NCBI RefSeq assembly: GCF_058153355.1
Contig: NZ_CM177019.1
Direction: 5' to 3' (one strand)
Length of the DNA: 64,000 nt
Position numbers and translations under genes: made by a program
In this document: positions 44,160 through 63,939 of the stretch, one piece after another
Layout of the letters: every line of letters begins with the position of its first letter
How positions within the stretch are numbered: position 1 is the stretch's first letter
The notes under the pieces: model-generated
Seen by the model: only the letters and a program-made list of their open reading frames with translations
What the model was told of the DNA's origin: nothing
Database searches by the model: none

Positions 44160-44198
44160 CCCCGCCACCTTTCCGGTGCGCGGGGTTTTGTCTTTTTT
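44160..44198 (+). terminator. Rho-independent terminator between the 387-aa ORF and the YeeP-like GTPase gene
   Basis: CCCGCCACC...GGTGCGCGGGG stem followed by GTTTTGTCTTTTTT. Confidence 0.6.
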
Positions 44199-44214
44199 CA
44201 CCGGGAATACATGT

Positions 44215-44874
44215 ATGAATCCGTCTGATGCCATTGAGGCAATTGAAAAACCGCTCTCCTCCCTGCCTTACTCACTTTCCCGTCACATCCTGGAACATCT
44301 GCGCAAACTCACCAGTCACGAACCCGTGCCTGGCATTATGGGTAAAAGCGGGGCCGGTAAATCCTCACTCTGTAATGCGCTGTTTCAGGGGGAGGTCACC
44401 CCGGTCAGTGATGTTCACGCCGGCACCCGGGAAGTGCAGCGCTTCCGTCTGAATGGCCATGGTCACAGCATGGTTATCACTGACCTGCCCGGGGTGGGCG
44501 AGAGCCGGGACAGGGATGCAGAGTATGAAGCCCTGTACCGTGACATTCTGCTCGAACTGGACCTGGTACTGTGGCTGATTAAAGCCGATGACCGTGCCCT
44601 GTCTGTGGATGAGTATTTCTGGCGACACATCCTGCACCGGGGACATCAGCGGGTACTGTTTGTGGTGATGCAGGCCGATAAAACGGAGCCCTGCCATGAA
44701 TGGGATATGGCCGGTATTCAGCCTTCTCCCGCAGAGGCACAGAACATTCGCGAAAAAACGGAGGCGGTATTCCGTCTGTTCCGGCCCGTACATCGGGTTG
44801 TTGCCGTATCGGCCCGCACCGGCTGGGAACTGAACCCGGTGGTGATGTACCAGGCTGTTGTTACAGATTTTTAA
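44215..44874 (+). CDS. Small GTPase of the YeeP/YfjP/YkfA island family
   Basis: Start MNPSDAIEAIE; P-loop GIMGKSGAGKSS, DLPG switch II, QADK-type G4; K-12 has yeeP at the equivalent island position. Confidence 0.8.
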   Translation: MNPSDAIEAIEKPLSSLPYSLSRHILEHLRKLTSHEPVPGIMGKSGAGKSSLCNALFQGEVTPVSDVHAGTREVQRFRLNGHGHSMVITDLPGVGESRDRDAEYEALYRDILLELDLVLWLIKADDRALSVDEYFWRHILHRGHQRVLFVVMQADKTEPCHEWDMAGIQPSPAEAQNIREKTEAVFRLFRPVHRVVAVSARTGWELNPVVMYQAVVTDF

Positions 44875-45050
44875 CTCCATGAAAACACTATGCAAACGCA
44901 GCCATACCCGGGTTGTCCCCTTGCGTTGTGTTTCTCAAGTTAATAGAATACATCAATCGTTACTATCATATCGATCGTTATAAACAATCGTTTGTAGTAA
45001 ATGACCTCCTCCGTGGTTGTCATGAAAATGCGTCTTAGGAAGGTTAAATA

Positions 45051-47447
45051 ATGCACGAAAAGAACATCGCCCTGCTTTGTGATGAAGCCGACCGACTTTT
45101 GCAACTGAACATTAATCTGCTCCGGCAAATGGTTGAGGAGCCAGATGTGTTATCTGACAGTAAGAACGAAAACAGACTGCTTTTTGATAAACAGAAAGCA
45201 CTGAAAAGAATTGAGGAGCTGGAGGGCGAACAAATCAAAACCGCCCGCAGGGAGATGGTGCTGGCTGTTGTCGGCACGATGAAAGCAGGCAAATCAACCA
45301 CCATCAACGCCATTGTGGGGCAGGAAATTCTGCCTAACCGTAACCGCCCCATGACCTCTGTACCGACGCTCATCCGCCACGTTCCCGGAAAAACTGAGCC
45401 GGTTCTCCATCTGGAACATATTCAGCCTGTCCGCAATTTATTAATCACACTGCAGGAAAAACTCGCCACCCCGGCAGGACAGCAGGTCGCACAGACCCTG
45501 CAGCAAACCGGGGATACCCGCGAACTGCTGGATATTCTGACGGATGATGGCTGGCTCAAAAATGAATACCACGGGGAGGAGGAAATCTTTACCGGACTGG
45601 CATCGTTAAACGATCTGGTTCGTCTTGCTGCGGCAATGGGGACTGAATTTCCTTTTGATGAATACGCAGAAGTGCAGAAACTGCCGGTGATCGACGTGGA
45701 ATTCAGCCATCTGGTGGGGATGGATGCATGCCAGGGAACACTCACACTGCTGGATACCCCCGGCCCTAATGAGGCCGGACAACCGCAGATGGAAGTGATG
45801 ATGCGGGATCAACTGCAGAAAGCCTCTGCGGTTCTGGCTGTGATGGATTACACCCAGATGAACTCAAAAGCGGATGAAGACGTCCGTAAAGAGCTTAATG
45901 CCATTGCTGACGTATCAGCCGGCCGCCTGTTTGTACTGGTCAATAAATTTGATGAGAAAGACCGCAATGGCGATGGGGCAGATGCCGTACGCCAGAAAGT
46001 TCCGGCAATGCTGAACAGCGATGTGCTGCCCGCCTCCCGCGTTTATCCCGGATCCTCACGCCAGGCATACCTGGCTAACCGTGCGCTTCATGAGTTACGG
46101 AAAAACGGAACCCTTCCTGTTGATGAAGCCTGGGTCGATGATTTTATCAGAGGTGCCTTCGGTTGCATGAAAAAAGAATACGTCTGTAAAGACAGTGAAC
46201 TGGCAACTGAAGGGGCGACAGACCTGTGGGAAGGCTCACTTATCGATCAACTGATAACGGAAGTCATACAGAGCTCACATTCCAGAGCTGCGGCACTGGC
46301 GGTTGACTCTGCCGCCGCAAAACTGATGCAGAATGCAGAAAATATCAGTGAATACCTGTTGTTACGCCATCAGGGGCTACAGCAAAGCATTCAGTCACTG
46401 CAGTCGCATATCACCAGCCTGCTTGCGGATATCCGGGAAATCGCGGACTGTCAGGAGCAGATGACCACTGATGTCAGAATGGCCATGGAGGAGATCGATA
46501 CTAAAACCCGGGAATTACTGACGGGGGTCTGCACCTCACTGGAAGAGGAGCTGAATGACTATTTCAGAAGCGGTAAACGCAAAGAACAGCAAATGCTGGA
46601 GGAAGAAGACGCAGAACAACGAAGGTCTCAGTCCGGATTATGGGGGAAAATTTCTCAATGGTCCGGTATCAACAACCAGGGCCGGGAGGATTACAGGAAA
46701 CGAGATTTTGCCCCGGACAGCCCCGAAATAAAATTCAGTGATCGCAGGGAAGCCCTTGAACTGATGACGCAAATCGAATCGACCGTGACCAGCCTGCACC
46801 GTGAGGCTGAAGCACAGTTCCGGCCTGAGCTGGAGAAAATCGTCAGCGGGATTGAAACAGGTTTTCGTGGCACGGCCCTGTACGCCACAGAAAACATTGC
46901 CGGTCGCATCAATGCCCGCCTGGAGGATGAGGGCTTTACCGTAAAAATCAGTTTTCCGGCAGTCAGCCAGTTACAGACCCGGCTCGCGGTAAAAATAAAT
47001 CTGAGTGCGCTTATGGAGGAAAGAACGGAGACCGTCACCCGTCGCCGTCGGCAGAGTGGCGTATGGGGAACCGTTTGTCGATGGTTTGGCACCAGTGACC
47101 TGGGCTGGGAAAACTATGACGAGGATGTGAGTCGCAGCGTGATCAATATCAACAAGGTCAGAGAGGAAGTTATGTCACTGACCCGGGCATATTTCGGGGA
47201 GCTGCAGGCATCCATTGAGCAGGATATTAACCAGCCCGTCCGCCAGGAAATCGATGCCTTTTTCTGCGCATTCAGGGAGAAAGTTGAACAACTGCGTAAC
47301 ACGCTGATTCAGAGCTCTGAAGATCATAAACGCGATCAGCAGGCGCAGGAACGGCTTACCGGGCGACTTCAGGCATTAAATGAAAGGGTTCCTGAGCTCA
47401 TTACTGACAGTAAGGCGCTGAGGGAAGAGCTGGAGACAATGCTGTGA
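45051..47447 (+). CDS. Bacterial dynamin-like large GTPase
   Basis: 798-aa ORF; GTPase motifs G1 GTMKAGKST, G3 DTPG, G4 NKFD in the N-terminal third; long helical, coiled-coil-rich C-terminal region; AGGAAGG RBS. Confidence 0.8.
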   Translation: MHEKNIALLCDEADRLLQLNINLLRQMVEEPDVLSDSKNENRLLFDKQKALKRIEELEGEQIKTARREMVLAVVGTMKAGKSTTINAIVGQEILPNRNRPMTSVPTLIRHVPGKTEPVLHLEHIQPVRNLLITLQEKLATPAGQQVAQTLQQTGDTRELLDILTDDGWLKNEYHGEEEIFTGLASLNDLVRLAAAMGTEFPFDEYAEVQKLPVIDVEFSHLVGMDACQGTLTLLDTPGPNEAGQPQMEVMMRDQLQKASAVLAVMDYTQMNSKADEDVRKELNAIADVSAGRLFVLVNKFDEKDRNGDGADAVRQKVPAMLNSDVLPASRVYPGSSRQAYLANRALHELRKNGTLPVDEAWVDDFIRGAFGCMKKEYVCKDSELATEGATDLWEGSLIDQLITEVIQSSHSRAAALAVDSAAAKLMQNAENISEYLLLRHQGLQQSIQSLQSHITSLLADIREIADCQEQMTTDVRMAMEEIDTKTRELLTGVCTSLEEELNDYFRSGKRKEQQMLEEEDAEQRRSQSGLWGKISQWSGINNQGREDYRKRDFAPDSPEIKFSDRREALELMTQIESTVTSLHREAEAQFRPELEKIVSGIETGFRGTALYATENIAGRINARLEDEGFTVKISFPAVSQLQTRLAVKINLSALMEERTETVTRRRRQSGVWGTVCRWFGTSDLGWENYDEDVSRSVININKVREEVMSLTRAYFGELQASIEQDINQPVRQEIDAFFCAFREKVEQLRNTLIQSSEDHKRDQQAQERLTGRLQALNERVPELITDSKALREELETML

Positions 47448-48349
47448 CTTCACCATTTATTCAACAAATTGCTGATAACCGGGTATGTCAGGTACTCACC
47501 TGTCTTCCTGAAAAATTTGTGGTTGATTTCGCAAACGGAATCGATGTTGCACAGGAGCATATCCGCACGGCCGGAGAGAGCACGTTCTTCCGGCGTTTAA
47601 AAGAGGGGCTGACCGGCGAAGGCGCTGCACGGCAGAATGCCATCAATGCGTCGCTTGCACAGGGCGTTGAGGCGTCCCTGCGCTGGCTGACGGAGATGAC
47701 AACGTCACTTGCCACCACAAACTACGCGATTACCCGGGTAAACGACAGGGTCAGTTCACTGGTCAGTGATACAGCCAGGCTGGCGCATTATTCCGCAGAT
47801 ACGCGGGAGCAGTTACTCACCCTGGCCGATCAGGTTCACCATAAACTGAATCATCTTGAAGAAAAACTCCACCGTGTTGACCAGGTTCAGCGGGCGCAGT
47901 TACATCTTGAGCAGATATTCTCATGGTGGAGCGCCGGGCGATATGCGTCATTTTCCCCTGCCGGACGTTGTTATGTGGCACTTGAAGAGCTTCGCTGGGG
48001 CGCGTTTGGTGATGTGATACGTCAGAGCGAAACAGGCCAGGTTAACCAGCTACTGGATATTCTCAGACATAAAGCATTAACGCAGATGGCACAGGAGAGT
48101 GGCGGTAGTGCAACCGTGCGTCTGAACACTCTGGACTGGCTTGGTGGTCAGGGCCGGGAGCAGGCAGATAACGAGTGGCATGACGCGATTAACTGGCTGG
48201 GAGACTGGTGCAGTGAAGAGCAGCATCCGGTGATCTGGTCAACCACGCAGGCTGCAGAACACTTACCGGTTCGCATGCCTCGCCTCTGCTCTGCAGAACG
48301 CCTCTCTGAAAGTATGGTCGATGAAATATTTCAGAAGGGGGCTGCATGA
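47444..48349 (+). CDS. Helical partner protein of the dynamin-like GTPase (no nucleotide-binding motif)
   Basis: 301-aa ORF; start overlaps upstream stop (ATGA) and its stop overlaps the downstream start. Confidence 0.7.
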   Translation: MTSPFIQQIADNRVCQVLTCLPEKFVVDFANGIDVAQEHIRTAGESTFFRRLKEGLTGEGAARQNAINASLAQGVEASLRWLTEMTTSLATTNYAITRVNDRVSSLVSDTARLAHYSADTREQLLTLADQVHHKLNHLEEKLHRVDQVQRAQLHLEQIFSWWSAGRYASFSPAGRCYVALEELRWGAFGDVIRQSETGQVNQLLDILRHKALTQMAQESGGSATVRLNTLDWLGGQGREQADNEWHDAINWLGDWCSEEQHPVIWSTTQAAEHLPVRMPRLCSAERLSESMVDEIFQKGAA

Positions 48350-49416
48350 GTACAGAAATGAAAACGGGGCTGGTGCTGTCCGGTGGCGGGGCGGTGGGCG
48401 CTTATCAGGCGGGAGTGGTTAAGGCACTGGCAGAGTGTGGTACACAGATCAGCATGGTTTCAGGGGCCAGCATTGGCGCATTCAATGGTGCCATTATCGC
48501 GGCCTCTCCCGATCTGTCAGAAGCTGCCGTACGCCTGGAGGCGCTCTGGGATCATCTGGGGAATAATCAGGTGCTGTCGGTAAACAGATTGGTTTACTTT
48601 TCATTGCTGAAAAAATTGTTCCAGGCAATGAACCTCTGCCAGATCCCCGGACGTGCAGGAGCACTGCTTACGACGCTTCTTCGCCATATATCGACAATCA
48701 ACGGGTTTGACAATCTGATGGCTCAGCCGTTGTTGTCAGATGAGCCCCTGACAGCGCTGATGGATCATTATCTTGATACTGATGCTCTGGCAGACGGGCT
48801 ACCGCTGTATGTGTCGCTGTACCCCACAGAAGGGGGCATGCAGGATATTATTGACTGCATTCGTGCTGAACTGGGTGTCGGAACCACGAAAAACGCCGTT
48901 TTTCAGCATATCCAGAGCCTGCCCCGCGGACAGCAGAAAGAGGCTCTGCTTGCGTCAGCCGCGCTGCCCCTGCTGTTCCGTCCCCGTGAGGTTCAGGGGA
49001 CAATGTTCGGTGATGGTGGTATGGGAGGATGGCGAAATATGCAGGGAAATACCCCTGTGACGCCTCTGGTCGATGCCGGATGCAATATGGTGATTGTGAC
49101 GCATCTGAGTGACGGTTCTTTATGGGATCGCCAGGCTTTTCCGGACACCACAATCCTTGAGATCCGTCCCCGGAAAAGGCTGAAATATGCAGGTGATGGT
49201 GGCAACAGCGGCGGTCTGCTCAGTTTTACATCGGCACATACCGACGCCTGGCGTCAGCAGGGCTATGAAGACACGATGCTGGCGATGGAGCATATCCGGA
49301 AACCGCTGGCAGCACGTCAGGCACTGACCCGGTCAGAGGCGGTATTGCAGAAAAGCCTGGATATAACGGAAGAGGCAGATTTGGCACTGAGAAACGCGAT
49401 GGCCCGGATTAAATAA
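48346..49416 (+). CDS. Patatin-like phospholipase
   Basis: 356-aa ORF with oxyanion-hole motif SGGGAVG, nucleophile elbow GASIG (GxSxG) and catalytic DGG (FGDGGMGG). Confidence 0.85.
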   Translation: MSTEMKTGLVLSGGGAVGAYQAGVVKALAECGTQISMVSGASIGAFNGAIIAASPDLSEAAVRLEALWDHLGNNQVLSVNRLVYFSLLKKLFQAMNLCQIPGRAGALLTTLLRHISTINGFDNLMAQPLLSDEPLTALMDHYLDTDALADGLPLYVSLYPTEGGMQDIIDCIRAELGVGTTKNAVFQHIQSLPRGQQKEALLASAALPLLFRPREVQGTMFGDGGMGGWRNMQGNTPVTPLVDAGCNMVIVTHLSDGSLWDRQAFPDTTILEIRPRKRLKYAGDGGNSGGLLSFTSAHTDAWRQQGYEDTMLAMEHIRKPLAARQALTRSEAVLQKSLDITEEADLALRNAMARIK

Positions 49417-49746
49417 AGACGCCCCAAAGAAACGCCACCGCCTGTGGTGGTGTTTTTCCTGTCTGGTGTTATTGAAAATATTTTCATATATATATTACCT
49501 GAGAGAAAGTTTTACCCCTCACCTGTCAATTCACTCACTGGAAATTTAATTATGAAATTACCTGTAAAGTTATTAATGAGCCTTATATCTCTGGTCAGCG
49601 TTATTGCACGTGCCGGGGAATATAAAAATTACAGCCGGGATGAAATAAAATACTGGCGATATACATCATACAAGGGGGGGAAACTTCCGGAAGGTTTCAC
49701 TGATGAGAAATTTTCCAGCGCCATTTACAACGGAAGAATATTTACA

Positions 49747-50235
49747 ATGAAACGTTTACATACCCTTATGTTATTTCTGGCGGTTCTGTTCACGGGCTTT
49801 AACTTTAACGCAGAAGCGGCTACCGTAAAACAAGCTCTTAGTTGTAACCCGGAAGCCTGGGCTGAACAACCTGGAGCGTGTCCATCAACGTACGAGTTGT
49901 ACGAAGGTGACGCTACCTACAAAGCCGCTATCGACAAAGCATTAAAACCGGTCGGACTGAGCGGCATGTTCGGTAAAGGCGGCTATATGGATGGCCCTGG
50001 TGGAGGTATCACGCCAGTAAACATTAACGGTACAGTCTGGTTCCAGGGCGACGGTTGCAAAGCCAATACCTGCGGCTGGGACTTTATCGTAACACTCTAT
50101 AACCCAAAAACCCATGAAGTTGTTGGCTACCGTTACTTTGGTTTAGATGACCCGGCCTACCTGGTTTGGTTCGGTGAAATTGGCGTGCATGAATTCGCGT
50201 ATCTGGTGAAAAACTACGTAGCTGCGGTTAACTAA
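49747..50235 (+). CDS. Secreted protein, possibly Ivy-like (inhibitor of vertebrate lysozyme fold)
   Basis: Signal peptide MKRLHTLMLFLAVLFTGFNFNAEA; loop GDGCKANTCGWDFIV resembles the Ivy CKPHDCG motif; same frame is open upstream to an ATG at 49552 with a second signal-like segment, so the start is uncertain. Confidence 0.5.
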   Translation: MKRLHTLMLFLAVLFTGFNFNAEAATVKQALSCNPEAWAEQPGACPSTYELYEGDATYKAAIDKALKPVGLSGMFGKGGYMDGPGGGITPVNINGTVWFQGDGCKANTCGWDFIVTLYNPKTHEVVGYRYFGLDDPAYLVWFGEIGVHEFAYLVKNYVAAVN

Positions 50236-50250
50236 TTTAAGGAGTCTATC

Positions 50251-50661
50251 ATGAAAACTTTTATCAAAACTTTACTCGTTGCTGTAACTATTCTGTTCTC
50301 TGTCTTCGCTACTGCGAAACAAGTAAAACTGCCAAATAACATCAAATACGTTAATACTACAGAAGCGTTTTCCTGTACCGAAATTGACGGTATGAATTGC
50401 CAGACAAAGAATCAGTTCAACTATAAAGATAACAGCTATGTTTTCGTGCTTGAACGTGGTGGTGCCTGGTGCTACGACTACACTGTCTCGGTAGTTAACC
50501 TGAAAACCGGGAAAGCACAAATGATTGAATACGGGGACAATCAACTGTGCTCAGGTAGCAACAAACCGTTCTTCGAAATCAAAAATGGCGTACCGACGGT
50601 AGGAGTCATCGACACATCCGGAAAACCTGTCGTTGTAGCCCAGGACAAACTTAAAATCTAA
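50251..50661 (+). CDS. Small secreted protein with four cysteines
   Basis: 136-aa ORF with signal peptide MKTFIKTLLVAVTILFSVFATA; AAGGAG RBS. Confidence 0.6.
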   Translation: MKTFIKTLLVAVTILFSVFATAKQVKLPNNIKYVNTTEAFSCTEIDGMNCQTKNQFNYKDNSYVFVLERGGAWCYDYTVSVVNLKTGKAQMIEYGDNQLCSGSNKPFFEIKNGVPTVGVIDTSGKPVVVAQDKLKI

Positions 50662-50804
50662 GGAGTAAACCATGCGTTTCTCTGCACATTATTAATATCA
50701 AAGGTAAATACAGCCCCAGCCATTGTTACCGGAAAGCCGCTTAATGCGTGGCTCGCCAGTGAAAGGCCTCTCAGACAATAAACCTTATTCATTTCACCCG
50801 TCAG

Positions 50805-50836
50805 GCCGCGTCTTCTCCGGGAGACGCGGCTTTTTT
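50805..50836 (+). terminator. Rho-independent terminator closing the dynamin/patatin/secreted-protein block
   Basis: GCCGCGTCT tctccgg GAGACGCGGC followed by T6. Confidence 0.75.
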
Positions 50837-50881
50837 CATTTATTGCACCAGTAAATCTTAACCACCGATAAGGAGCAAAGT

Positions 50882-51703
50882 ATGCGATTAGCAAGTCGTT
50901 TTGGTTATGCTGCAAACCAGATACGCCGTGACCGTCCGCTGACACATGAAGAACTGATACGCCATGTACCCAGTATTTTTGGGGAAGACCGGCACACCTC
51001 CCGCAGTGAACGGTATGCGTACATTCCCACCATTACCGTCCTGGAAAATCTGCAGCGGGAAGGCTTTCAGCCGTTCTTCGCCTGCCAGACCCGTGTGCGC
51101 GACCCGGGCCGCCGGGGATACACAAAACACATGCTGCGTCTGCGGCGGGCCGGAGAGATAAACGGAGAACATGTCCCTGAAATTATTCTGCTCAACTCTC
51201 ATGACGGTACCTCCAGCTACCAGATGCTGCCGGGTTACTTCAGGTTCGTCTGCCAGAACGGGTGCGTCTGTGGCCAGTCTCTGGGGGAAGTGCGTGTTCC
51301 ACACCGGGGAAATGTAGTGGAGAAAGTTATCGAAGGGGCTTACGAGGTGGTGGGCGTGTTTGACCGGATAGAGGAGAAGCGTGATGCCATGCAGTCGCTG
51401 GTCCTGCCGCCACCGGCACGCCAGGCGCTGGCACAGGCGGCACTGACTTACCGTTATGGTGACGAACATCAGCCCGTCACCACCGCCGACATTCTGACGC
51501 CGCGACGCCGGGAGGATTACGGTAAGGACCTGTGGAGCGCATATCAGACCATCCAGGAGAATATGCTGAAAGGCGGGATTTCCGGTCGCAGTGCAAAAGG
51601 AAAACGTATCCATACCCGGGCCATTCACAGCATTGATACCGACATTAAGCTCAATCGCGCATTGTGGGTGATGGCAGAAACGATGCTGGAGAGCCTGCGC
51701 TGA
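50882..51703 (+). CDS. DUF932-family island protein (YfjQ-like)
   Basis: 273-aa ORF MRLASRFG...EIILLNSHDGTSSYQMLPG; recognised as the conserved CP4-type island family. Confidence 0.75.
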   Translation: MRLASRFGYAANQIRRDRPLTHEELIRHVPSIFGEDRHTSRSERYAYIPTITVLENLQREGFQPFFACQTRVRDPGRRGYTKHMLRLRRAGEINGEHVPEIILLNSHDGTSSYQMLPGYFRFVCQNGCVCGQSLGEVRVPHRGNVVEKVIEGAYEVVGVFDRIEEKRDAMQSLVLPPPARQALAQAALTYRYGDEHQPVTTADILTPRRREDYGKDLWSAYQTIQENMLKGGISGRSAKGKRIHTRAIHSIDTDIKLNRALWVMAETMLESLR

Positions 51704-61454: not shown

Positions 61455-61530
61455 TGGCTCCTCTGACTGGACTCGAACCAGTGACATACGGATTAACAGT
61501 CCGCCGTTCTACCGACTGAACTACAGAGGA
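61455..61530 (-). tRNA. asnV: tRNA-Asn (GTT anticodon)
   Basis: Minus-strand 76-nt sequence TCCTCTGTAGTTCAGTCGGTAGAACGGCGGACTGTTAATCCGTATGTCACTGGTTCGAGTCCAGTCAGAGGAGCCA. Confidence 0.95.
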
Positions 61531-63863: not shown

Positions 63864-63939
63864 TGGCTCCTCTGACTGGACTCGAACCAGTGACATACGG
63901 ATTAACAGTCCGCCGTTCTACCGACTGAACTACAGAGGA
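63864..63939 (-). tRNA. asnU: tRNA-Asn (GTT anticodon), second copy
   Basis: Same 76-nt minus-strand sequence as 61455-61530. Confidence 0.95.

Follow-up and report, generated by a model that had tools for sequence, protein, structure and literature searches.

What are the two small genes that follow a patatin-like phospholipase gene in an integrative island of Escherichia coli, and do they serve that phospholipase? The question is raised by a stretch of 64,000 nucleotides (nt) from contig NZ_CM177019.1 of RefSeq assembly GCF_058153355.1, hereafter the window, in which an earlier note had pointed to two small open reading frames (ORFs) after the phospholipase gene, each with a signal peptide-like start and four cysteines, and had likened a string in the first (GDGCKANTCGWDFIV) to the loop of Ivy lysozyme inhibitors. 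Inspection of the sequence confirms both ORFs with these features, and the string is present. We find that the first gene, ORF1, represents an unannotated, loop-altered Ivy subfamily common to jumbo phages and CP4-type islands, and that ORF1 and its neighbour ORF2 are not a dedicated immunity system for the adjoining patatin. The reading that we favour, with moderate confidence, is that the two genes belong to a trimmed jumbo-phage cassette of small periplasmic proteins lodged in a slot of the island, and that ORF1 inhibits a peptidoglycan glycosidase in protection of the envelope.

Both genes lie on the plus strand. ORF1 (49747-50235) encodes a precursor of 162 amino acids (aa) from an internal methionine codon (49747-49749) with a ribosome-binding site (RBS), GGAAGA, at 49732-49737, while the 136-aa precursor encoded by ORF2 (50251-50661; WP_000846713) is preceded by an AAGGAGT RBS, read from the sequence, at 50239-50245. 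The N-terminus of ORF1 comprises a basic n-region, a 12-residue hydrophobic core (Kyte-Doolittle average 2.5) and an AEA-A cleavage site, and that of ORF2 has a signal peptide-like n-h-c arrangement with an ATA-K site (best 12-residue Kyte-Doolittle average 2.9); from these features we infer that both proteins are exported. Lipoprotein status is ruled out for both, neither having a lipobox cysteine. Each contains exactly four cysteines, which in ORF1 presumably form the disulfides Cys33-Cys45 and Cys104-Cys109, as assigned by adjacency and by homology to the loop disulfide of Ivy. At a coverage of at least 80%, ORF1 and ORF2 occur together in 2247 of 5426 complete E. coli genomes (41%), including O157:H7 Sakai (within SpLE2) and O104:H4, and over 2200 genomes preserve their frames and RBSs intact. 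When compared with phage and island homologues at 7-40% protein divergence, the ratio of nonsynonymous to synonymous substitution rates (dN/dS) is 0.14-0.19 for ORF1 and 0.13-0.25 for ORF2. Given these ratios and their presence in so many genomes, ORF1 and ORF2 are real genes under purifying selection, and not chance ORFs.

The kinship of ORF1 with Ivy comes to light through intermediates. Direct sequence searches of Pfam, NCBIfam, PADLOC and the PDB with the window proteins returned nothing significant, a phmmer search of the PDB with ORF1 returned nothing relevant, and no direct above-threshold match placed ORF1 in PF08816 or NF007443. A word-indexed search with ORF1 recovered only E. coli alleles (58-81% identity), many of which are 160-161 aa long and start at the internal methionine, and their alignment shows four cysteines and core residues to be invariant around a loop of the form CK[AS][NHD][AT]CGW. 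Sub-threshold Pfam matches to Ivy, the sole family matched, were obtained for five of eight ORF1 alleles (best E 0.015), the allele P0014 reached 20.3 bits against the NCBIfam Ivy model NF007443, and a profile built from the island alleles (A1) ranked Ivy (1GPQ) second in the PDB, at E = 1 only. An exhaustive hmmsearch of 1.84 billion representative proteins, using a profile of island and phage alleles of ORF1, yielded 57 matches at E<=1e-3, the remoter of which (E 1e-21 to 1e-4) carry loops such as CEAHNCG, CKPHACP and CKAHDCS. From this search we chose 18 full-length intermediate relatives (A7), all 18 of which match Pfam Ivy at E<=1e-3. The A7 profile alone matches only four entries in the PDB, all of them Ivy (1GPQ, 1XS0, 4PS6 and 1UUZ; E 1.3e-13 to 6e-10), and hhalign joins A1 to A7 with 99.8% probability over 127 columns (E 3.7e-29), pairing CKANTCG of the window with CExHNCG. 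Furthermore, tblastn connects ORF1 (31% identity over 93% of its length, E 1e-10) to Klebsiella plasmid genes that the NCBI annotation pipeline PGAP calls 'Ivy family c-type lysozyme inhibitor'.

The predicted structure points the same way. In a Foldseek search of the PDB with the AlphaFold2 model of ORF1 (mean predicted local distance difference test score, pLDDT, 88.1; predicted template-modelling score, pTM, 0.79), the top eight matches are all Ivy chains, with a probability of 1.00 and target-normalised template-modelling (TM) scores of 0.63-0.73, and the ninth match reaches only E ~0.7. We therefore consider it established, by profile and transitive sequence comparison, that ORF1 is a remote and divergent homologue of Ivy and, as far as a structural model can establish it, that it has the Ivy fold. 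The description of the first protein as 'Ivy-like' is thus borne out by hhalign, by the PDB matches of the intermediates, by Foldseek and by the annotated Ivy-family genes found with tblastn. With a score far short of the equivalog cutoff of NF007443, ORF1 does not count as an Ivy orthologue. Some Ivy-like domains among its relatives (P0088, P0090, P0129, L021:3836-4909 and L034:6001-6945) are fused to a conserved C-terminal domain of ~170 aa with the motif NTIW..F.N..G..LWQACG, and these fusion genes directly precede DUF932 or DUF905 in CP4-like modules; in P0122, the Ivy-like domain is followed by a further C-terminal region of ~300 aa.

What, then, could such a protein inhibit? The ORF1 loop of the window, CKANTCG, aligns exactly with CKPHDCG of Ivy in its C-K-x-x-x-C-G frame, and other alleles carry CKANACG, CKSNACG, CKAHACG or CKSDACG. 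The position of the loop histidine is accordingly variable in the subfamily (N in the window, H in P0014 and P0016, D in P0006), and histidine is nearly invariant there in the intermediate clade A7. In canonical Ivy, the CKPHDC loop is strictly conserved and has been found by mutagenesis to be essential for inhibition (PMC4262234); a CKPHDC(G) loop with its active-site histidine was not found in ORF1 of the window. This bears on one alternative explanation, namely that ORF1 is an additional inhibitor by which host-associated E. coli withstand, in the periplasm, the animal lysozymes (c-, g- or i-type) of innate immunity, and that phages carry it in the manner of a moron. Ivy-family homology and fold, the retention of the loop histidine by some alleles (CKAHACG in P0014 and P0016), and carriage by 41% of complete E. 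coli genomes, O157:H7 Sakai and O104:H4 among them, all fit such a role. However, E. coli already possesses canonical ivy and mliC (PMC10139938), the loop of the window has none of the histidine, proline and aspartate of the essential loop (PMC4262234), and the closest relatives of ORF1 reside in kin of lytic Seoulvirus-type jumbo phages, to which protection from animal lysozyme would bring no obvious benefit. We regard a classical Ivy role as unlikely.

The origin of the genes is indicated by their colinearity with jumbo-phage genomes. In blastn comparisons, a block on the plus strand at 49740-50693, containing ORF1, ORF2 and the first 21 nt of a third gene, is 77.6% identical over 959 nt to the metagenomic contig L013 (9994-10942), with colinearity stopping 21 nt into the third gene, at 50693, and 69% identical to a second contig, L008. 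The phage contigs that bear the cassette measure 168 kb (L013), 64 kb (L008) and 221-225 kb (the IMG/VR viral genomes L028-L030), and the same gene order is found in NZ_CP134650.1 (L020), the circular, non-mobilizable 'plasmid unnamed1' of Enterobacter ludwigii (222,441 bp). The order common to all six runs from a YfjT-like gene through genes for proteins of 128-131 aa, 160-161 aa (Ivy-like), 136 aa (ORF2-like), 129 aa, 158 aa and 202 aa to an SMC-like protein of 834 aa, an acetyltransferase and an SLT protein, with an SMC-like protein that shares 60-69% identity with its counterparts in Erwinia and Salmonella (Seoulvirus) jumbo phages. Because the Enterobacter 'plasmid' has the phage gene order and matches the 221-225 kb IMG/VR genomes in size, it probably represents the genome of a jumbo phage that accompanies the isolate, as a pseudolysogen or in a carrier state. 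Phage SPN3US shows the same order from gp086 to gp080, but with an unrelated gene, gp085, in place of the Ivy-like gene, which suggests gene replacement within a conserved cassette; gp085 itself (L011:3487-3978) is annotated as 163 aa long and is likewise a secreted, cysteine-containing protein. The Ivy-like gene appears to be confined to a related, apparently undeposited phage clade and to the islands. In GC content, too, the cassette (44.8%) agrees with the phage contigs (43.6-45.1%) and departs from the dynamin operon upstream of it (53%).

The second gene likewise has relatives in such phages. ORF2 matches phrog_8968 over its full length (E 2.6e-45; residues 1-131 on positions 1-133 of the 135-position profile), a family that includes gp084 of SPN3US and whose members in SPN3US-like (Seoulvirus) jumbo phages of Salmonella, Erwinia, Proteus and E. 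coli are 33-37% identical to it; further homologues (~32% identity), annotated 'secreted protein', occur in Salmonella islands. Its four cysteines are invariant or nearly so across the family, no member of which matches Pfam or the PDB. The AlphaFold model of ORF2 (pLDDT 76, pTM 0.71) is a seven-stranded all-beta structure, unlike MliC/PliC, PliG, PliI or any Tli, and a fold search with it gave no match beyond its own family. That ORF2 might be a paralogue of ORF1 is ruled out by their different folds.

Both flanks of the cassette have been cut by deletions, and this explains how the first gene is annotated. The earlier note had observed that the frame of ORF1 is open upstream to an ATG at 49552 that begins a second signal peptide-like segment (confirmed here, Kyte-Doolittle average 2.7), and had proposed either an N-terminal extension or a fusion with a leader ORF. 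Indeed, PGAP annotates the whole of 49552-50235 (plus strand) as a hypothetical protein of 227 aa (WP_000775500). By homology to L003:7098-7640, its first 65 codons (49552-49746, plus strand) are an in-frame stump of another gene, which sister islands have kept whole and which encodes a secreted protein of 180 aa; the stump and the N-terminus of this protein are 49% identical over 63 aa (E 4e-18). Between two E. coli alleles the stump has accumulated no synonymous and five non-synonymous changes, as against 22 synonymous and 14 non-synonymous changes in ORF1, and is therefore not under ORF1-like constraint; moreover, the RBS of ORF1 has been kept at the fusion junction. Judged from these comparisons, the 227-aa annotation is an artefact of a deletion that fused the stump of the 180-aa gene in frame to ORF1, and the 162-aa form is the likely product, so that of the two proposals the fusion holds and the genuine extension does not. 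We reject the 227-aa form as a functional protein, its extension being the stump of another gene and many alleles starting at the internal methionine. The fused form serves as the PGAP reference, and the intact 160-aa allele of E. coli MP1 (L023:3484-3972; SID94_RS19700) is flagged as a pseudogene 'missing N-terminus', an artefact that probably affects hundreds of genomes.

At the other end (50660-50695, plus strand), an AAGGAGT identical to that of ORF2 (50660-50666) precedes a 7-codon ORF (50672-50695) that reads MRFSAHY before its stop, as the earlier note had remarked in suggesting a truncated third member. This suggestion proved right: the ORF corresponds, in colinear position, to the first 21 nt of the gene for the 129-aa secreted protein (phrog_5248) that follows ORF2 in the phage cassette, the full-length versions of which begin MRFICALAFFF or MRLVCVLAFFF in L008 and L029. 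The assignment was settled by blastn, a MAFFT alignment of the DNA being uninformative. The third-gene family is a weak paralogue of ORF2, and its stump is also present in the sister island L003. Sister islands with the P0014 allele carry, after the patatin gene, an intact gene for the 180-aa secreted protein, a pseudogenised copy of the 131-aa gene and a 160-aa Ivy-like gene with its own RBS, followed directly by the third-gene stump, with no ORF2.

Such erosion could mean that ORF1 and ORF2 are themselves remnants of a decaying cassette, with no function of their own, that are simply carried along by a successful island. Of the cassette genes on either side of the pair only stumps remain, ORF2 is gone from sister islands, where the 131-aa gene is a pseudogene, the in-frame fusion could send ORF1 to the wrong compartment, and the window allele no longer has the loop histidine. 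Yet a dN/dS of 0.13-0.25 across 7-40% amino-acid divergence is not what decay would leave, nor are intact frames and RBSs in over 2200 genomes, the conservation of all four cysteines and core residues among ORF1 alleles and of cysteines in the ORF2 family, or the fact that an allele is transcribed and strongly regulated (PMC12922286). We consider it quite improbable that the two genes have no function.

Under the reading that we favour, the locus is a cut-down version of a cassette that ~222-kb SPN3US/Asesino-like jumbo phages carry, lodged in the variable cargo slot of a CP4-44-type island, between a YeeP-like GTPase gene with the dynamin-RdcB-patatin genes on one side and a DUF932-antirestriction-RadC-CbeA/CbtA module on the other. 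The loop CKANTCG of mature ORF1 would insert into the active-site cleft of a periplasmic peptidoglycan glycosidase and block the enzyme, as Ivy does. Because the loop histidine is replaced and the nearest relatives are phage genes, a muramidase or lytic transglycosylase of phage or bacterial origin (e.g. a tail-associated lysin, an endolysin or a competitor's effector) may be a more likely target than animal c-type lysozyme. Ivy also inhibits bacterial lytic transglycosylases (PMC10139938; Clarke 2010, as cited in PMC3660660), and the T4 protein Spackle acts in the periplasm to inhibit gp5, the tail lysozyme, and confers superinfection exclusion (PMC7677548). By analogy, the envelope protection afforded by ORF1 might take the form of superinfection exclusion or of resistance to lysis from without, and ORF2 probably works in the same compartment on another component of the envelope or of a phage. 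A more specific version, which we advance only tentatively and think rather doubtful, is that a jumbo-phage Ivy was re-tooled against the wall enzymes of competing phages and that islands co-regulate the cassette with dynamin-RdcB-patatin as a lysogen-induced envelope defence against phages and lysis.

The inhibition might instead be directed inwards, with ORF1 restraining an enzyme of its own element or of its host (the phage SLT protein or MltB-type lytic transglycosylases) and thereby timing lysis or limiting damage to the wall. The inhibition of bacterial lytic transglycosylases by Ivy accords with this, as does an SLT-domain transglycosylase gene ~7 kb downstream of the cassette in the phage contigs, but the island copy has no linked SLT gene, and we hold self-directed control to be very unlikely.

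Several observations weigh against inhibition by a phage-derived Ivy. Window ORF1 has no Pfam match to Ivy even at E<=10, and its score against NF007443 is 11.6 bits (E 0.19) where the cutoff is 180. The AlphaFold alignment for ORF1 included Ivy-family sequences, and the fold result is consequently not fully independent of the homology. The loop keeps its cysteine frame, lysine and glycine, while its proline, histidine and aspartate are all replaced, and it is possible that this change marks a loss of inhibition or a binding role that is not inhibitory. If translation started at 49552, the internal signal peptide could become a stop-transfer anchor and leave the Ivy domain in the cytoplasm. 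ORF2, on the evidence of its model, is an orphan all-beta protein, predicted to be periplasmic, that offers no functional lead. With regard to ancestry, a tblastn search of 50,697 deposited phage genomes with ORF1 found no homologue, the link to phages is drawn from metagenomic and IMG/VR contigs together with one Enterobacter 'plasmid' record (222 kb), and the direction of transfer, from phage to island or the reverse, is suggested by GC content alone.

Do the small genes have anything to do with the patatin? They lie in a locus that, in the reference order of NZ_CP023834, runs from a GTPase gene through genes for dynamin-family, RdcB-family and patatin-like phospholipase proteins to two hypothetical proteins (WP_000775500 and WP_000846713), followed by DUF932, antirestriction, YeeS (RadC/JAB), YeeT and CbeA/CbtA genes and then by yeeA and sbmC. 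The window is E. coli chromosome, with the region 49400-50900 being 100% identical to many complete genomes, and the locus is a CP4-44-type integrative island adjoining yeeA/sbmC. Upstream of the cassette are a dynamin-like gene (CrfC/RdcA-like, 798 aa; 45051-47447), an RdcB-like gene (301 aa; 47444-48349) and the patatin-like phospholipase gene (356 aa; 48346-49416). Each start lies over the preceding stop, with overlaps of 4 nt (47444-47447 and 48346-48349), and the three genes are therefore translationally coupled; PADLOC gave only weak matches of this operon to LeoBC and effector-phospholipase models. The N-terminus of the patatin has no signal peptide (best 12-residue Kyte-Doolittle average 1.4). 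A terminator-like hairpin on the plus strand at 49436-49452 (7-bp stem with five GC pairs, followed by TTTTT), 97% conserved in sequence in the sister island L003, starts 20 nt 3' of the patatin stop and divides the operon from the cassette. A consensus scan revealed no convincing sigma-70 promoter between this terminator and ORF1.

The earlier note had proposed that the small proteins are immunity or modulator proteins of the patatin, in the manner of Tle/Tli pairs, and had looked to genetic linkage in other genomes for a decision. Linkage is indeed seen in E. coli, where ORF1 and ORF2 adjoin a patatin gene in 1822 of 2247 carriers, and in every island variant that we examined the patatin gene is followed by small secreted proteins of some kind. 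Regulation also joins them: in E. coli MP1 the five-gene cluster SID94_19700-19720 was the most strongly up-regulated set in Kapi1 lysogens by RNA-seq, the authors proposing a dynamin-based role in phage defence (PMC12922286), and in RefSeq, assuming that GenBank and RefSeq locus-tag numbers correspond, this cluster comprises the dynamin, RdcB, patatin, 180-aa secreted protein and P0014 Ivy-like genes, so that an Ivy-like allele and the 180-aa protein rise together with dynamin-RdcB-patatin. However, the E. coli linkage reflects a single island lineage, not independent associations, and does not extend beyond it. Jumbo phages with ORF1 and ORF2 carry no patatin; the Salmonella homologue of ORF2 lies between GTPase and DUF905/DUF932 genes, where patatin, dynamin and Ivy-like genes are all missing; and Ivy-like genes without a patatin are found just upstream of DUF905/DUF932 on a Klebsiella IncFIB plasmid and in an island on L034, a contig of another bacterial assembly. 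Conversely, patatin islands exist that have no ORF2 or neither gene, and in one recombinant E. coli island ORF1 and ORF2 sit behind a truncated Ag43 gene and a mere stub of the patatin gene.

Nor does the patatin resemble the lipase of a Tle/Tli pair, a lipase delivered by a type VI secretion system (T6SS) to act in the periplasm: with no signal peptide and in CP4-type island surroundings, it belongs to a coupled, cytoplasmic module, and a periplasmic partner could not shield the producing cell from it. Pfam, PADLOC and PDB comparisons found no similarity of ORF1 or ORF2 to Tli proteins, lipase-immunity linkage across unrelated genomes is not seen, and the fold of ORF1 is that of a glycosidase inhibitor rather than a lipase inhibitor. 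Together with the terminator between patatin and cassette, these observations leave the proposal of patatin immunity without support, and we judge it most unlikely.

The island sequence around the cassette is otherwise as follows. A strong intrinsic terminator-like hairpin on the plus strand at 50803-50832 (13-bp stem with eight GC pairs, then TTTTCATTT) ends the cassette upstream of the DUF932 gene, within the 185 nt (50696-50880) that separate the third-gene stump from the DUF932 start. From 50751 onwards, this stretch is 93% identical to the sister island (L003:8548-8850), which has ~120 nt more before DUF932. An Rfam search of 49000-51200 found no RNA family. In strain 4/2-1 (L001), the GTPase and dynamin genes are separated by ISEc12, an insertion sequence (IS) of the IS21 family (L001:1818-4120), and the RdcB-like gene (L001:7045-7950) has an internal stop; in the window, 44176-48349 contains no IS, the RdcB-like ORF is intact (301 aa), and the GTPase ORF has 232 aa, fewer than the 243-291 aa of homologues elsewhere. 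Two tRNA-Asn (GTT) genes on the minus strand (61455-61530 and 63864-63939) lie downstream of the island and are presumably, from the genome organisation of E. coli K-12, part of the asn tRNA cluster.

In other islands the patatin gene is followed by a different set of small secreted proteins (e.g. E. coli DEF2, L035:4661-6739), and the alternatives include a YfjT-like protein (168 aa), a protein related to the 180-aa one (212 aa) and a third of 161 aa. The slot therefore acts as an array in which periplasmic proteins can be exchanged, and some of them have relatives in CP4-57 of K-12 (YfjT, PF27224). The slot upstream of the DUF932 and antirestriction genes in CP4-type islands thus emerges as a recurring home for swappable small periplasmic proteins, K-12 YfjT relatives included, from families that jumbo phages also carry. 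Two genes present in ~41% of complete E. coli genomes have been labelled no more than 'hypothetical protein', and for one of the two there is now a name, that of a divergent member of the Ivy family. Full-text literature searches and a comparative review of jumbo phages (PMC7824862) yielded no report of an Ivy homologue in phages, and an altered-loop phage Ivy, if the favoured reading is true, would take this scaffold beyond its known targets, animal lysozyme and host lytic transglycosylases, into conflict between phages or between phage and host.

How does the pair compare with systems already described? Like the Ivy proteins of E. coli (YkfE; PDB 1GPQ and 1XS0) and Pseudomonas aeruginosa (Ivyp1; 1UUZ and 4PS6) that define PF08816, ORF1 is small, predicted to be Sec-exported and periplasmic, and modelled as helices packed on a five-stranded antiparallel sheet, with a disulfide-closed six-residue loop followed by glycine (C-K-x-x-x-C-G) at the homologous position. 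Unlike them, it is only ~18-21% identical to Ivy proteins of solved structure, below Pfam and NCBIfam thresholds; its loop reads CKANTCG and not CKPHDCG; it has an extra N-terminal cysteine pair, common to a large uncharacterised Ivy-related clade; and it is encoded in jumbo phages and mobile islands, not at the core ivy locus. T4 Spackle (gp61.3) offers a functional parallel as a small, phage-encoded protein with a signal peptide, and the block of a hydrolase in the periplasm that we propose for ORF1 would follow its example, whereas the two differ in structure and descent: Spackle, a bundle of alpha-helices, inhibits by an allosteric route and shares no ancestry with Ivy (PMC7677548). With Tle/Tli pairs the locus shares a gene for a small periplasmic protein directly downstream of a lipase gene, but here the surroundings are not those of a T6SS, the cytoplasmic patatin shares an operon with dynamin and RdcB, Tli homology is absent, and the association breaks down outside one lineage. 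A further counterpart is the gp083-gp086 cluster of SPN3US (PHROG families 8968, 5248 and 9424), which likewise consists of small, secreted, cysteine-containing proteins of unassigned function: its gp084 belongs to the ORF2 family and its gp083 to the third-gene family, in the same order upstream of the SMC gene, and it differs in having the unrelated gp085 at the position that ORF1 occupies in the island.

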